Source of the DNA: Nitrosopumilaceae archaeon
Lineage (GTDB): Archaea; Thermoproteota; Nitrososphaeria; Nitrososphaerales; Nitrosopumilaceae
Length of the DNA stretch: 64,000 nucleotides
Assembly: GCA_965207375.1 (NCBI GenBank)
Contig: OZ242274.1
Location: forward strand, 448,001 to 512,000
Direction: 5' to 3'
The notes beneath the pieces are model-generated. The model did no database searches. It was not told the origin of the DNA and was given only the letters and a program-made list of their open reading frames with translations. Positions 27,819-32,895 of this stretch are shown here, in pieces (the stretch's first letter is position 1; every line of letters begins with the position of its first letter). Position numbers and translations under genes: made by a program.

Positions 27819-28396
27819 ATCCCTATCTTTTTGGCAAATATGCCCATTACATCCTGGTGAACCTGTTGCTGTGTTCTAGATGCATTGACTAGCTTCCAGC
27901 CCTTTTTCTTTGCTATTTTGCGATACGTTACTGTGATTTTTTTGAGGAACTTTTTGTCTTTTTCAAACCTGTCGCGGTTTGATTTTTTACGGTCAAAGGA
28001 TTGGCCCAGAGTTACATCAAGCAGTATTACAAGATCTGCCTTGGGCAATCCTGATTCAAGATTTTCCAGCCAATCCTGTTTTAGGCCGTTGACTAGTCCG
28101 TATACGATATTGGATTGATAGTATCGATTCATAATAAGAACAGAATTTTTTTTGTGTGCCTTGGAAATTGCCTCTAGGTTTTCCCACCTGTTTGCAGCAA
28201 GCAGGCAGTGAATTACCTGGGGCGGAAATTTTCTTTTTCCATCCAGATATTTTCTGATCTCTTTTCCCATGGGAGTCGTATAATCAGGAAAGCTAAAGGT
28301 TTTGGTTTTAATTTTATTTTTTTTAAGGGCCTTTTCTAGCAGGGCAGTCTGTGTTTTTTTGCCTGCCTGGTCTACACCTTCAATTACTACAATCAA
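27815..28396 (-). CDS. tmk: Thymidylate kinase
   Basis: IEGVDQAGKKTQ P-loop, FPDY, ANRWE, NRY..S. Confidence 0.93.
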   Translation of the reverse strand: MIVVIEGVDQAGKKTQTALLEKALKKNKIKTKTFSFPDYTTPMGKEIRKYLDGKRKFPPQVIHCLLAANRWENLEAISKAHKKNSVLIMNRYYQSNIVYGLVNGLKQDWLENLESGLPKADLVILLDVTLGQSFDRKKSNRDRFEKDKKFLKKITVTYRKIAKKKGWKLVNASRTQQQVHQDVMGIFAKKIGI

Positions 28397-28475
28397 GACG
28401 GTTTTGATTGGAATTAATTAATTAAAAATGCATGGATTGATTGTGTATTTTTGGCAGTATTTTCAGGCATGGAGT

Positions 28476-29144
28476 TTAATCTGTTTGGGCCTGTGCTTCT
28501 TTTTGCAATGCAAAGATCAGCATTTTATCTTGGGTGACTAGTTTGACATCATCTAGCGCTAAAGACATGCAAAGCAGGATGCAGTCAGTTTCTGAAAGTT
28601 CCTTTCCAAAGCTATCGACATATTTTTTGGACTCGTATAGCTCTCTTGCATTAATTACGGGTTCTTTTGCATGATCAAGCTGTATCTTATCAACTGTTCC
28701 AATCGTTTCTAATCTGTCAATTATTTGCTGGGTGGTAACTGATATGTCGTATTTGTGTTTTTCCATGTGCTGTGTTTCAATCAGTATCCTGTCTAGTACA
28801 ACCAACCTTATGGGATCGTAAATGTCTTTGACAAATTCGTGTATTGGTTTGCCGTTGATTAGATGATGAATTATTACAGTATCAAGCAAGAGTCCGATGG
28901 TTTTAAGGGATTGTTGGTCAGAGATAATGGAGATTTCAGGCAATTCATCTAGCATTGAATCAATCTTGCCAAATAGGGCCGCCTTGCCGCCGGTGGGCTT
29001 TGCCAATAAATTTCCGCAGAATTTACAGTTAACGGTGCTTTTTGCCATGGTAAAGACGATACTTGCAGAGCTGCACGATTGGCATTTGATTTTTACAAAT
29101 CTGCTATCTGGCACAGGCATCTTATCGTAAATTGTCAATACCAT
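28476..29144 (-). CDS. Fusion of ribosomal protein eS27-like Zn ribbon and PIN-domain ribonuclease
   Basis: P.SRFVKIKC..C.....VF..A...V.C..CG..LA.PTGGKA (eS27 signature), then LLDT...E...LSETD..LL...LVTQDKML (PIN acidic residues). Confidence 0.8.
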   Translation of the reverse strand: MVLTIYDKMPVPDSRFVKIKCQSCSSASIVFTMAKSTVNCKFCGNLLAKPTGGKAALFGKIDSMLDELPEISIISDQQSLKTIGLLLDTVIIHHLINGKPIHEFVKDIYDPIRLVVLDRILIETQHMEKHKYDISVTTQQIIDRLETIGTVDKIQLDHAKEPVINARELYESKKYVDSFGKELSETDCILLCMSLALDDVKLVTQDKMLIFALQKEAQAQTD

Positions 29145-29254
29145 GTATTGTAACGTAAAGTAATATGCTTTTATGATGCCTAGGCCAAAGTGTCTAAATC
29201 CGGCAGGCACTGTACCAGGCTGTGCGGTAAAGCATCTCAAGTGTATTGTAGAAT

Positions 29255-30085
29255 TTAGCAGGAAATTTTTTTGTTTATCTCGCCAAGTATGGTTCTCAGC
29301 ATCTGACCAAGGTCACTTTTTTCTGTATAATCGGGGGAATATAGTCCATAGTTTGTTCTTCTCCCACGTGCAAGCTCGTATGCCTTTTTGGATTTTTGTT
29401 TGTCCATAATACCTATACAATGTCCGCCGTTGCTTCGTACTGCAGAAAAACATGGAATGTCAGTGGGTCCATCTCCGATGTAGATCATGTTCTCAAATGG
29501 AATTCTGCGCTGTTGATTTTTTATCGAATTGTTGACCAAATACGGATATTTTCGCAGATTTTTTCCTGCAATACCCTTGTTAATTGCATAAAGAAATTTT
29601 GTTTTTTCTGTAAATGTTACCGTCGATTTGACAGAATTATATCTGCCGGTTGCAGGATCCACGTCATAGTTTCCTGCAAAAACATCTGTGAACTGTTTTA
29701 CAAATGTGCAGCCTCTGACCAAATCCTCTATGCCGCCTGAAATTATGTATCCCTCTATGTTGATTCCTGACTTTATAAACTCTGAATCATTTGACACCCA
29801 ATGCTGTAATTCTTTTATGAAGGTCTCAGCGCCCTTAAACGGTTTGATGGCAGTAGCTAGCTGTTTTAGTTTTTGGGGTGTATTTTGTTTGATTTTGCCT
29901 TGTTTCATAAGACGTAAGATCTCTCCAAGGTATGCCTGCGGTGGATCCCAGCCTTTTTGTACAAATTTCTCATCAATGTTCTTCCAAAATTGTTCCGTGG
30001 GTATCTTGTTTTGCTCTAGCAAAAAATTTGTCGTATCTGCTGTCAGGGTTCCATCACAATCACAGATTATGGCAACAGTGGGCAT
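29255..30085 (-). CDS. HAD-superfamily hydrolase
   Basis: DCDGTL motif I, ISGG motif II, KT motif III, YIGDGPTD motif IV. Confidence 0.9.
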   Translation of the reverse strand: MPTVAIICDCDGTLTADTTNFLLEQNKIPTEQFWKNIDEKFVQKGWDPPQAYLGEILRLMKQGKIKQNTPQKLKQLATAIKPFKGAETFIKELQHWVSNDSEFIKSGINIEGYIISGGIEDLVRGCTFVKQFTDVFAGNYDVDPATGRYNSVKSTVTFTEKTKFLYAINKGIAGKNLRKYPYLVNNSIKNQQRRIPFENMIYIGDGPTDIPCFSAVRSNGGHCIGIMDKQKSKKAYELARGRRTNYGLYSPDYTEKSDLGQMLRTILGEINKKISC

Positions 30086-30304
30086 TGTTGCCTCTATGAT
30101 TCATTATAATAAAAAAGGATCCCAAAAAACTAATCGAGTATACGCAAATGAAGGCAGAAAAATTCATCATATATTTCACAGTTTAGTGGAGTTGAAAAGA
30201 GGCTAGGTTCACTGTTCCTGTATATTCAATTCTATACACGATTTACGTAAACTTGTCACGTTAGACCTAAGCTTACATTTTCCCAAATCGCAACATTTTT
30301 AGAA

Positions 30305-30315
30305 CCCCCCCCCCC
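30305..30315 (+). repeat. Poly-C homopolymer (about C11) in promoter of secreted repeat protein
   Basis: Run of C between TTTTTAGAA and the GTG at 30325 in an AT-rich genome. Confidence 0.85.
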
Positions 30316-30324
30316 GTTAATTTT

Positions 30325-32349
30325 GTGAAAACATTATACTTTGTAGTTATTATGGCAGTTTCAGTATCATTATTGCTTGGTGTTCAAACACCAGAGGCGT
30401 TCTCAGAGCATGAGTTATGTTGGGACATTAGTTCCCAATCACTGACTAACAAATTCTGTCACCAAGAGGATTCATCCGTTACAATGTCCCCTCAATTTTA
30501 TACAGATGATAAGGAGATTAACAAAGCTCAAGTCACACTAAACAATCCAGCTCACGGCGACCCCTTTACAGTAACTGTAACTCTAGATGAGCCAGCAAAT
30601 GGAACAATAGAATTTAATGTCCAAGTAGATGACTGTCATGCCACTCACGGTAATATCAAGAAAAGTGCAATAAACCTATGCAGTAATACCAATCATGCCA
30701 CAATAGGCGGTAGCACTACCAGTGATTTTGAATATCACACAGTTTACAATAGTGAAACAGATCGTGATGCAACACCTCCAAAAGATCCAATTTACCTTAC
30801 ACTCAAAACCCAAAAGATAACCATCAATAAAGACGCTACATCAGGTACTGCCACATGGAACACATGTACATTATGTGGCCCTACTTCAGGTGAATCATTC
30901 CTAGTCATGGTTTCACCAATAGTACAACGCACTATAGATAACCCATACCTCTATGATTGGATACATCCTGGTACACCACGTGACACAACGTATGGTAGTC
31001 AATCCTATTGGGAAGCGCATCTTGGCAGGGATGTTCCTACAATACGGCTTATTGATGCTAGCGCCCTTAGTGTTGTAGAAGGTTCCCAAATAGGAGTAAT
31101 TTTCGCCTTTAACCCGACAAACACACCAAGTACACTAATTAGATACAGTATTAGTCAAAGCGGGAATTTTCTAGATGCTGTGTCTCCGCCAGGTGTGTAC
31201 AGTACAACAGCTACTCATGGCGTTCCTCATTATGAAAATACTCATGATGATAGTGTACCCGAAGACGATGGCAGTGTCACATTTTCATTACTTCCAAGCA
31301 GTGATTATAATTTAGGTACCCCTCATAGTTTAACATTTACCGTAACTGATAATGACAGGGGCGGTGACATGCTCCAAAGTGGCGTTCCAATACCAGATAG
31401 TCCAATACCTGAAATTGATCCTGCAGTAATAGACGGTGCAAGGCTAATGGCAGAACAAACTCATCTTGGTGCAGATCACGTTGACAGATGGAATAGGGTC
31501 TTGGCAGCATTTGGAGTGACACAACATGATAATCCTATGACAGCAGATGAGGCTCTGGCCAATGTATCAAAATACAATAATGCATTTTGGCAGTTGGTAG
31601 CCGCAGAAATAAAGAAATTAGAGACTTACTTTGATACGGTCTCACAGCAGCCACAGCAGCAAAATGCAACACAAAATACACCACAGCAACCACAGGAAAT
31701 ACACGTACCACAGATTAATCACACATCAAATATCGCACAAGATACACCGATAATTGTACCAGAATCTATACCAATACCTACAGCTGACCCAGAACTAATT
31801 GAAGATATAAAGTACCTAGCAAGTCAAGTACATCACGGTCACCAACATGTTGACAGATGGAATAGAGCACTTGCAGCATTTGGAGTGATACAACATGATA
31901 ATCCACTTACTGCAGCAGAGGCTCAGGCAAATACAAAGAAATATTCTAGTCCATTATGGGTCAAGATTGCAAATATCTTACAAGAGCGTGAGGCTGCAAT
32001 TGAACAACAACAGCAACAACAACAGCAAAAAGCAACACAAAATACACCACAGCCGCCACAGGAAATACATGTACCACAGATTAATCACACATCAAATATT
32101 GCTCAAGATTCACCACAGGTAGAACCAATAGAACCAACACCTGAACCACCATATACGGTAAATGCAACTTTAATTGAAGCTGTAAAAGAACAAGCTGGTT
32201 TATGGAATAGAACACTTGCAGCATTTAACATTACAGAACATGATAATCCTATGACTACAGCCGAAGCCCAAAACAACACCCAAAAATATTCTAATCCACT
32301 ATGGGCACAGATTGCTGAAACTTTGAAGAAATTAGAGGCGGCAAATTAA
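30325..32349 (+). CDS. Secreted surface protein with Calx-beta-like domain, three helical repeats and Q/P-rich linkers
   Basis: Signal peptide; SVVEG...T.DDSVPEDDGSVT..L.....Y......VTDND; 3x WNR.LAAF....HDNP.TA.EA..N..KY....W..IA. Confidence 0.8.
   Translation: MKTLYFVVIMAVSVSLLLGVQTPEAFSEHELCWDISSQSLTNKFCHQEDSSVTMSPQFYTDDKEINKAQVTLNNPAHGDPFTVTVTLDEPANGTIEFNVQVDDCHATHGNIKKSAINLCSNTNHATIGGSTTSDFEYHTVYNSETDRDATPPKDPIYLTLKTQKITINKDATSGTATWNTCTLCGPTSGESFLVMVSPIVQRTIDNPYLYDWIHPGTPRDTTYGSQSYWEAHLGRDVPTIRLIDASALSVVEGSQIGVIFAFNPTNTPSTLIRYSISQSGNFLDAVSPPGVYSTTATHGVPHYENTHDDSVPEDDGSVTFSLLPSSDYNLGTPHSLTFTVTDNDRGGDMLQSGVPIPDSPIPEIDPAVIDGARLMAEQTHLGADHVDRWNRVLAAFGVTQHDNPMTADEALANVSKYNNAFWQLVAAEIKKLETYFDTVSQQPQQQNATQNTPQQPQEIHVPQINHTSNIAQDTPIIVPESIPIPTADPELIEDIKYLASQVHHGHQHVDRWNRALAAFGVIQHDNPLTAAEAQANTKKYSSPLWVKIANILQEREAAIEQQQQQQQQKATQNTPQPPQEIHVPQINHTSNIAQDSPQVEPIEPTPEPPYTVNATLIEAVKEQAGLWNRTLAAFNITEHDNPMTTAEAQNNTQKYSNPLWAQIAETLKKLEAAN
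31666..32099 (+). repeat. Near-identical ~68-bp direct repeats (31666-31733, 32032-32099) and CAA/CAG poly-Q tract (32005-32028)
   Basis: gcaacacaaaatacaccacagc..ccacaggaaataca.gtaccacagattaatcacacatcaaatat twice. Confidence 0.85.
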
Positions 32350-32538
32350 ACATCGTGTAATGTCTTTTAATCTGGAATGTTTTGCCTGCATTTTCATTAA
32401 ATACAAATCATGCTGTTTGGATTTTGTAGGTGACGACCTGACATAATTTTTGGCAGAATTTGCAGGTGACGAATTCTAGTATAACATTTTCAGATTGTAC
32501 TTATATGACGAATTAATTCTAGTATAATAGTAAATTCA

Positions 32539-32895
32539 ATGACTGTAGTAAAAGATGTTGGAAACAAGTCCAAAGAATTCTATGAATTTGTATTGCCGCC
32601 AATTGACATGCATATTGAAGAGAATCGATTGATAGTCATCATCGATTTGCCAGGATTTGACAAAAAAGATCTAAAGATACACCTTGATGCAAATATTTTG
32701 TGCATAAATGCAGAAAAACCAAAGATAAAGGAAAATCCAATATACAAGCAAAGACCAGACATTATAGATAAGAAAATCAAATTGCCTGTACACATCAAAG
32801 AAGGTGAGGAAAAAGTCGAGGCCGTACAGTTTTCTCAGGGCGTTTTACGTATAACAATACCATTCAAGTCAGAAAAAGACATTACAATAAAATGA
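32539..32895 (+). CDS. Small heat-shock protein (Hsp20/alpha-crystallin)
   Basis: PPIDM, DLPGFDK, I.LP, GVL.I.IP. Confidence 0.92.
   Translation: MTVVKDVGNKSKEFYEFVLPPIDMHIEENRLIVIIDLPGFDKKDLKIHLDANILCINAEKPKIKENPIYKQRPDIIDKKIKLPVHIKEGEEKVEAVQFSQGVLRITIPFKSEKDITIK

Follow-up and report, generated by a model that had tools for sequence, protein, structure and literature searches.

Ubiquitin-eS31 and ubiquitin-eL40 are natural ribosomal-protein fusions from which the ubiquitin is cleaved off, and bacterial ribosomal proteins have zinc-free paralogues that can replace the standard copy. Cutting of RNA on the ribosome is known from RelE and Cue2/NONU-1/SmrB, separate endonucleases that act in trans after recruitment to the A site or to ribosomes that have collided. 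The site of Nob1, the endonuclease that generates the 3′ end of small-subunit rRNA, lies on the small-subunit platform, and there are reports of extraribosomal nucleic-acid binding by eukaryotic eS27. A review gives the 3′ end of 18S rRNA as the place where Nob1 cuts, and the title of a PDB entry (5wzf) states that VapC20 cuts the sarcin-ricin loop of rRNA. In part of the text of one source eS27 is located with the central-domain platform helices h20, h22 and h23 and with eS1, uS11 and uS15 (PMC12095548), and a portion of another has its zinc knuckle contacted by eIF3c and eIF3d beside h22 (PMC7780240). The classical position of rps27e is beside rpl44e in the LSIN cluster, as given in sections of Berthon et al. 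(2008; PMC2643942) that also mention DNA binding.

In a 64,000-nucleotide stretch of the genome of a Nitrosopumilaceae archaeon (hereafter the window), one gene encodes an eS27 domain that continues in frame, through a short linker, into a PIN domain (Table 1). The protein shares with eS27 (PF01667) a fold that extends over all 57 residues, a C4 zinc ribbon and the PTGGKA motif, but it is about 150 residues longer, with the PIN domain at its C-terminus, has Met for a conserved His, forms a branch of its own apart from the canonical copies, is patchily distributed and is not encoded beside rpl44e. Like the VapC-type toxins PAE0151, AF1683 and VapC20, its best structural matches, it has a PIN fold with four acidic residues; unlike them, it has no VapB gene, is covalently linked to a ribosomal protein, represents the sole eS27 detected in one genome and has a PIN domain without a sequence-level match in the PDB. 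With Nob1 it has in common a PIN nuclease, a zinc ribbon and, by analogy, an expected action on the small-subunit platform. It differs from Nob1 in the order of the modules (ribbon then PIN, a reversal already pointed out in the first-pass annotation of this DNA), in its PIN subfamily, in the bona fide eS27 nature of its ribbon and in its rarity, Nob1 being universal. As in the ribosomal-protein fusions and paralogues mentioned above, a ribosomal protein occurs as a fusion or as a second copy able to replace the standard one, but the partner here is a nuclease domain, whereas the partners in those fusions are not RNA-acting enzymes. The idea of mRNA or rRNA being cut on the ribosome is shared with RelE and Cue2/NONU-1/SmrB, with the difference that the nuclease would be part of a platform-side ribosomal protein. 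The first-pass annotation knew of no described fusion of this kind, and full-text literature searches likewise yielded no description of an S27e-PIN fusion; the main text of a classification of the PIN superfamily (PMC5499597) contains neither "S27" nor "ribosomal protein", although its supplementary tables could list such an architecture.

Residues are numbered throughout in the 214-aa form (P0002), which begins at the downstream one of two in-frame ATGs; the upstream one was the start used in the first-pass annotation. Either ATG is possible as the start, because homologues have 5–12 residues ahead of the P-x-P motif. The longest frame reaches a TTG at 29240, and the stop codon is TAA (28476–28478, minus strand). 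A TATA-like A+T-rich stretch, ATAAAAGCATATTA, lies about 20–33 bp ahead of the upstream ATG, inside the spacer, and is a putative promoter as read from the sequence only.

Table 1. The fusion gene, its parts and its neighbours (positions in the window).
Feature	Position	Strand	Remarks
eS27-PIN fusion CDS	28476–29144	minus	222 aa from ATG 29144, or 214 aa from ATG 29120
eS27 domain	28950–29120	minus	residues 1–57; C4 zinc ribbon; PTGGKA at 42–47
Linker	28896–28949	minus	residues 58–75; sequence variable, length conserved in the family (about 17–20 aa)
VapC-like PIN domain	28479–28895	minus	residues 76–214
PIN acidic codon, Asp80	28881–28883	minus	
PIN acidic codon, Glu115	28776–28778	minus	
PIN acidic codon, Asp179	28584–28586	minus	
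PIN acidic codon, Asp198	28527–28529	minus	
Upstream spacer	29145–29254	minus	110 bp
Insertion, about 4.1 kb	28400–32540		between tmk and Hsp20 gene, relative to same-genus genome G249 (tblastn synteny)
HAD-like gene	29255–30085	minus	in the insertion; adjoins the fusion
674-aa repeat protein	30325–32349	plus	in the insertion

The N-terminal domain is a complete eS27, as had been proposed from its signature. The Pfam family Ribosomal_S27e (PF01667) matches residues 4–55 of P0002 over profile positions 1–52 of 55 with 60.2 bits (cut-off 24.5), and the next zinc-ribbon families score at most 13.5 bits (E 0.06–0.08), which marks the N-terminus as eS27 specifically rather than some generic ribbon. 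Residues 1–60 match 56 PDB chains at E ≤ 1e-3, every one of them eS27, with an alignment that runs end to end (residues 1–57 against 6–62 of a 63-aa eS27 chain), and Foldseek places the domain with chains of archaeal ribosome structures (TM 0.73–0.81, target-normalised; 57 aligned columns; 38–43% identity). The domain has a pLDDT of 77–95 in the AlphaFold2 model of the fusion. The cut-off of the NCBIfam S27e equivalog (PRK00415) was missed, with 66.9 bits against 70. The fused domain scores against the S27e family model no worse than genuine ribosomal copies: in a six-frame search of the window genome the fusion scored 63 bits and the canonical copy 56.7, and in other genomes fusions reached 53.5–63.9 bits and canonical copies 58.5–68.2.

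The zinc ligands are Cys13, Cys16, Cys32 and Cys35, of which the latter two are invariant in the 11 aligned family members and the former two are present in all six rows that extend that far (the remaining five are called from Met25); all four are retained in each of the 13 fused rows of an alignment of S27e domains. Fused domains also keep the PTGGKA motif, which canonical copies of the family have lost, and 12 of the 13 have Met instead of the His of [FY]SH[AV], which all 25 canonical Nitrososphaeria sequences have. Mean pairwise identity among 11 fusions (55 pairs) is 63% in the eS27 domain, compared to 52% in the PIN domain and 34% in the linker, and the fused and canonical S27e copies of the window genome are 38% identical over 53 residues. 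A tree of 33 distinct S27e domains, weakly resolved given its 52 columns, separates the 12 fused from the 21 canonical Nitrososphaeria sequences (support 91/94); this is compatible with a single old fusion kept under selection, a single origin not being proven by it. A word-indexed search with the eS27 part (residues 1–60) among shorter proteins gave no candidates, which has no bearing on the origin of the domain.

The C-terminal domain has a complete PIN fold, as had also been proposed, and is predicted to be an active-looking VapC-type endoribonuclease. Its Pfam match (PIN, PF01850; residues 78–200 of P0002) is marginal, at 23.7 bits only 0.1 bit above the cut-off of 23.6, and 14 of 31 family members match this model at E ≤ 0.01. 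The PIN part has no match among PDB sequences at E ≤ 1, and Foldseek aligns its predicted fold with the VapC-type PINs AF1683 (1w8i), PAE0151 (2fe1) and VapC20 (5wzf). The acidic residues that had been picked out by eye, Asp80 (in LLDT), Glu115, Asp179 (in SETD) and Asp198 (in TQD), do not vary among the 11 aligned family members; across a broader set of 31 sequences no change is seen at Glu115 or Asp179, and Asp80 and Asp198 are each retained in at least 90%. The AlphaFold2 model, built on an alignment of these 31 sequences, has two compact domains (mean pLDDT 92.1), with values below 50 at linker residues 64–68. Searches of the ESM Atlas with the PIN part returned generic PIN clusters alone (0.89–0.92) and no lead on function, and a complex prediction for two copies of residues 70–214 scored 0.00, which speaks neither for nor against dimerisation.

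The fusion is an eS27 paralogue. In the window genome two S27e matches exceed the cut-off, one being the fusion and the other a separate canonical rps27e of 65 aa that overlaps the stop of rpl44e. The canonical copy thus holds the rpl44e slot, and the fusion gene lies between tmk and the HAD-like gene. The fusion is also a rare, accessory gene with a patchy distribution, carried by a small number of marine ammonia-oxidizing archaea. Whole-genome searches detected it at full length in G000, G098, G159, G148 and G151, and further in G301 and G302, which makes seven genomes. As a query, the whole protein has a match in 291 of 301 genomes of the class, a tally that includes three unpublished genomes with a canonical-type match only (G230, G282 and G131), which contribute to no other result, and the fusion is present at full length in five of the 301. 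None of three other genomes of the same genus has the fusion by this query, and none of four same-genus genomes has a PIN-family match when the PIN part is the query. The PIN part matched 12 of 401 genomes of the family at E ≤ 1e-5: these comprise five full-length fusions, two close relatives without an eS27 domain (G257 and G494), four distant relatives and a close relative that is cut at a contig start, so that its N-terminus is not visible (G505).

Both the fusion and a canonical rps27e occur in six of the seven fusion genomes, the exception being G148, a single contig of 2.05 Mb that is 99% complete. Here the fusion alone exceeds the PF01667 cut-off (56.9 bits; the next match, in a 382-aa frame, has 19.4 bits), and a canonical S27e query matches the fusion only (E 3e-13); in three congeneric genomes this query recovers canonical genes, with E values of 1e-21 to 1e-24. 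At seven of eight loci compared, the genes run in the order cobS-like, mobA-like, rps27e, rpl44e; in G148, the eighth, the mobA-like and rpl44e matches are about 10 bp apart (by ORF call the two genes overlap convergently) and the rps27e slot is empty. Loss of eS27 from G148 without a substitute is unlikely, because 260 of 261 genomes of the class that are at least 90% complete have an S27e-type match. Most simply read, these sequences mean that the fusion serves as eS27 in G148, although the absence is that of one assembly, from which a gene can be missing without having been lost; eS27 might also be dispensable in this organism. G148 provides indirect support for ribosome docking of the fusion, which here retains the PIN motifs LLLDT, DRILTE, HME, LSMTD and VTQD. 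An NCBI protein 100% identical to the G148 fusion is named simply "ribosomal protein S27E". In G148 the gene is followed after 28 bp by ABCE1 in the same orientation; what precedes ABCE1 in this genome is not common to three same-genus genomes or to the window genome, and the adjacency was given no weight as evidence.

We favor, with somewhat better than even confidence, the reading in which the fusion is an eS27 variant in the small subunit that tethers an RNase near the mRNA exit. As the eS27 domain is the best conserved part of the protein and scores like ribosomal copies, and as the known task of such a 57-residue protein is to occupy a place on rRNA, it probably binds the same rRNA site, that is, the normal eS27 site on the solvent side of the central (platform) domain, beside h22 and near the mRNA exit. 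The fused domain would compete there with stand-alone eS27 or, in one genome, replace it. The PIN domain would be held on the ribosome surface, at most one linker length (about 18 residues) from the eS27 site, where it might cut ribosome-associated RNA, either mRNA as it emerges from the exit channel or 16S rRNA in its 3′ region. In most carriers this would be an optional, horizontally scattered gene that gives rise to a sub-population of nuclease-bearing ribosomes, most likely used in defense or stress-linked RNA decay; an optional role of this kind (antiviral or stress-linked RNA decay) is suggested by the defense-like surroundings in the window and by the patchy spread. The first-pass annotation had proposed that the ribosomal domain delivers an RNase to the 30S subunit in dormancy, defense or quality control, an interpretation that our results support in part, with these three roles as possible uses.

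In a stronger form, which we put forward tentatively and think somewhat doubtful, a stoichiometric eS27-PIN protein would be a built-in endonuclease of the small subunit, obligatory where plain eS27 has been lost and optional elsewhere, and the ribosome itself would cleave freshly translated mRNA or the 3′ end of its own 16S rRNA. We know of no other structural ribosomal protein with a catalytic nuclease domain, and the literature searches brought none to light. If the fusion is in the ribosome, RNA cleavage would be intrinsic to a natural ribosome and not the job of a recruited factor, and the fusion would represent a new kind of ribosomal protein made of two domains that each belong to known families. 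This would matter for the decay of mRNA during translation, for ribosome heterogeneity and for the antiviral shut-off of translation in archaea, about all of which little is known, and the coexisting copies would amount to natural specialized ribosomes defined by one swappable protein. Organisms that have the plain copy, the fused copy or both, including one genome with apparently the fused copy only, constitute a natural test case.

The surroundings of the gene bear on another possibility, already implied by the label "toxin" in the first-pass annotation: the protein could be a conditional toxin or abortive-infection effector, i.e., a free VapC-like RNase, distinct from a structural ribosomal protein, whose eS27 mimic docks transiently on small subunits and shuts down translation upon infection or stress. 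The accessory patch beside tmk that had been remarked upon is an insertion (Table 1), bordered by an Hsp20 gene identified by Pfam (HSP20), and in G109 the tmk–Hsp20 gap holds different genes. The insertion has a G+C content of 0.392 compared to 0.395 for the window and thus no composition signal. Within it, the HAD-like gene directly beside the fusion matches the PADLOC candidate defense family PDC-S34 (185.7 bits), and at several other loci transposase-like ORFs flank the fusion, as judged by eye. These neighbors would suit a toxin, as would the scattered occurrence of the fusion (five of 301 class genomes) and of its whole PIN family (12 of 401 family genomes), and a fold nearest to VapC-type PINs that include the rRNA-cutting VapC20. 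However, the fusion itself has no significant match in PADLOC-DB 2.0 (best 13.3 bits, E 0.0075, to the zinc ribbon only), and no copy of it was found in viral contigs, where an 11-sequence alignment gave 20 pattern matches and no relatives. Nor is there a VapB-like partner, since no neighbor is common to 10 loci (apart from the antisense shadow ORF of the fusion) and neither the 110-bp nor the 80-bp spacer flanking the gene has room for a free same-strand ORF of at least 20 aa; this agrees with what had been read from the window at first. Another objection comes from G148, where the only eS27 found has an intact PIN site that must be tolerated constantly, which argues against a lethal toxin. 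The toxin label is not supported, and we regard this explanation as unlikely.

The ribosome may not be the target at all. Because a normal rps27e is present in six of the seven fusion genomes, the fusion need not enter ribosomes, and it could be a PIN RNase with a borrowed zinc ribbon that binds other RNA or DNA. An exhaustive search of 1.84 billion representatives with the PIN part brought up just 24 relatives (E ≤ 1e-3), some of which have Lys-rich N-terminal tails, while three carry a C-terminal CxxC...CxxC ribbon (P0017, P0024 and P0030); among metagenome contigs, 125 pattern matches yielded two relatives, both with the PIN part only and on contigs of 1.6–2.3 kb, and no new full-length fusion or context. 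Such sister PINs, with their unrelated basic tails or other ribbons in place of eS27, would also fit a generic RNA-binding module, and the replacement of the canonical His by Met and the nucleic-acid binding of eukaryotic eS27 outside the ribosome point the same way. A borrowed ribbon would hardly be expected, however, to comprise a full-length eS27 that scores like the ribosomal copies and is better conserved than any other part of the protein, and no other eS27 was found in G148. We judge this reading to be improbable, more so than a toxin.

To a Nob1-like nuclease acting in biogenesis or quality control we attach less weight again. Such a protein would bind pre-30S particles or damaged 30S subunits with an empty eS27 site and would either trim 16S rRNA at its 3′ end or degrade the particle. 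It would be built, as Nob1 is, from a PIN domain and a zinc ribbon, three of the PIN relatives mentioned above have their ribbon in the Nob1 order, and eS27 is on the platform domain, where Nob1 also has its site. Yet a core biogenesis factor should not be confined to five of 301 genomes or reside in an insertion. Moreover, the window genome has its own, separate Nob1 (C1:20845-21105; PIN_6, 66.4 bits), whereas the fusion has no PIN_6 match at E ≤ 1 and has its domains in reverse order.

The same build recurs well beyond the window. A word-indexed search of 5.8 billion proteins returned 10 homologues with this architecture at 50–66% identity, and the titled records among the fusion genomes all read "MAG: Nitrosopumilus sp."; in the seven genomes the fusion is found at 50–55% identity with both domains conserved, and more examples are present among metagenome proteins. 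Contigs from two sequencing runs of one study, which may be the source of the assembly, cover positions 28300–29400 in one piece with no differences, and two short contigs from a run of another study, about 95–97% alike, cover 28300–28961. The frame is open from start to stop, and the junction is not misassembled, because six other genomes have the same fusion. An artifact (faulty assembly at the junction, a pseudogene in decay or two genes mistaken for one), to which only the Met25 starts annotated in half of the database homologues might point, is thus barely credible and is ruled out, as far as sequence data allow, by the open frame, the recurrence and the unchanged stretch in the contigs of two runs. 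The five of 10 homologues annotated from Met25 lack half of the eS27 domain, and for two of them, those of G098 and G159, the genomic ORF continues upstream through the whole domain, so that these starts are start-calling errors. With half of the homologues called from an internal Met, public annotation masks the fusion architecture.

The PIN domain of the eS27-PIN fusion is not always joined to an eS27 domain. Among its relatives, some (P0017, P0024, P0030 and a protein at locus L093) carry either a C-terminal CxxC...CxxC ribbon, the order found in Nob1, or extended N-terminal tails that are rich in Lys and contain Pro/Glu spacers. The Lys-rich-tailed proteins were found in small-genome members of the family, and in some tailed relatives the last catalytic Asp is replaced by Asn. 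In two close relatives, encoded in genomes G257 (locus L043) and G303 (locus L051), the PIN part is ~51% identical to that of the fusion, and a Lys/Arg-rich N-terminus of ~55 residues occupies the place of the eS27 domain. This replacement shows that, within Nitrosopumilus, the ribbon was either swapped or lost.

For five homologues (P0005, P0009, P0011, P0012, and P0013), public gene calls begin at the internal Met25, which halves the eS27 domain; judging from the open reading frame in the single-contig genome G148, GTG or TTG may be the true starts. The G148 fusion protein (P0042) is annotated solely as ribosomal protein S27E.

The window's fusion lies between tmk and the Hsp20 gene, in a gap (compared at loci L055, L056, and L057) that varies within the genus. 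This gap is empty in G249, a genome of the same genus, is rearranged in G202, and in G109 holds a putative prolyl-tRNA synthetase-like ORF and a putative FGE/EgtB-like ORF, both named by eye. Within the window's insertion, the HAD-like gene matched PDC-S34, a PADLOC candidate single-gene defence family (185.7 bits, E 2.8e-55), and every Pfam HAD match fell under its cut-off. The 674-aa ORF matched nothing in Pfam or PADLOC; its N-terminus is hydrophobic, and a ~50-residue repeat (HVDRWNRxLAAFG...HDNPxTAxEA) occurs in it three times, with spacers rich in Gln and Pro between the copies.

Coordinates of genes and regions discussed in the text
Feature	Location	Strand	Context	Match
HAD-like phosphatase gene	window 29255-30085	(-)	directly upstream of fusion	
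674-aa ORF	window 30325-32349	(+)	same insertion as fusion	
tmk-Hsp20 gene gap	window 28400-32540			
139-aa PIN protein, separate	L040 8994-9413 (G159)		just downstream of fusion	Pfam 29 bits
Fusion and ABCE1	L041 7906-10392 (G148)	same strand	28 bp apart, ABCE1 downstream	
PIN relative	L043 9733-10320 (G257)			
PIN relative	L093 1456-2142			
Partial ABCE1-like match	G000:C1:564108-564452		outside window, which spans G000:C1:448001-512000; same contig	residues 41-155

The fusion of G148 is followed by the gene for ABCE1, a ribosome recycling factor; this adjacency is absent from three same-genus genomes and from the window genome. In G159, another full-length fusion carrier, repeated transposase-like ORFs surround the 139-aa PIN protein near the contig end. 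The window genome also contains a second, partial ABCE1-like match with one internal TAA, which may be a gene fragment.
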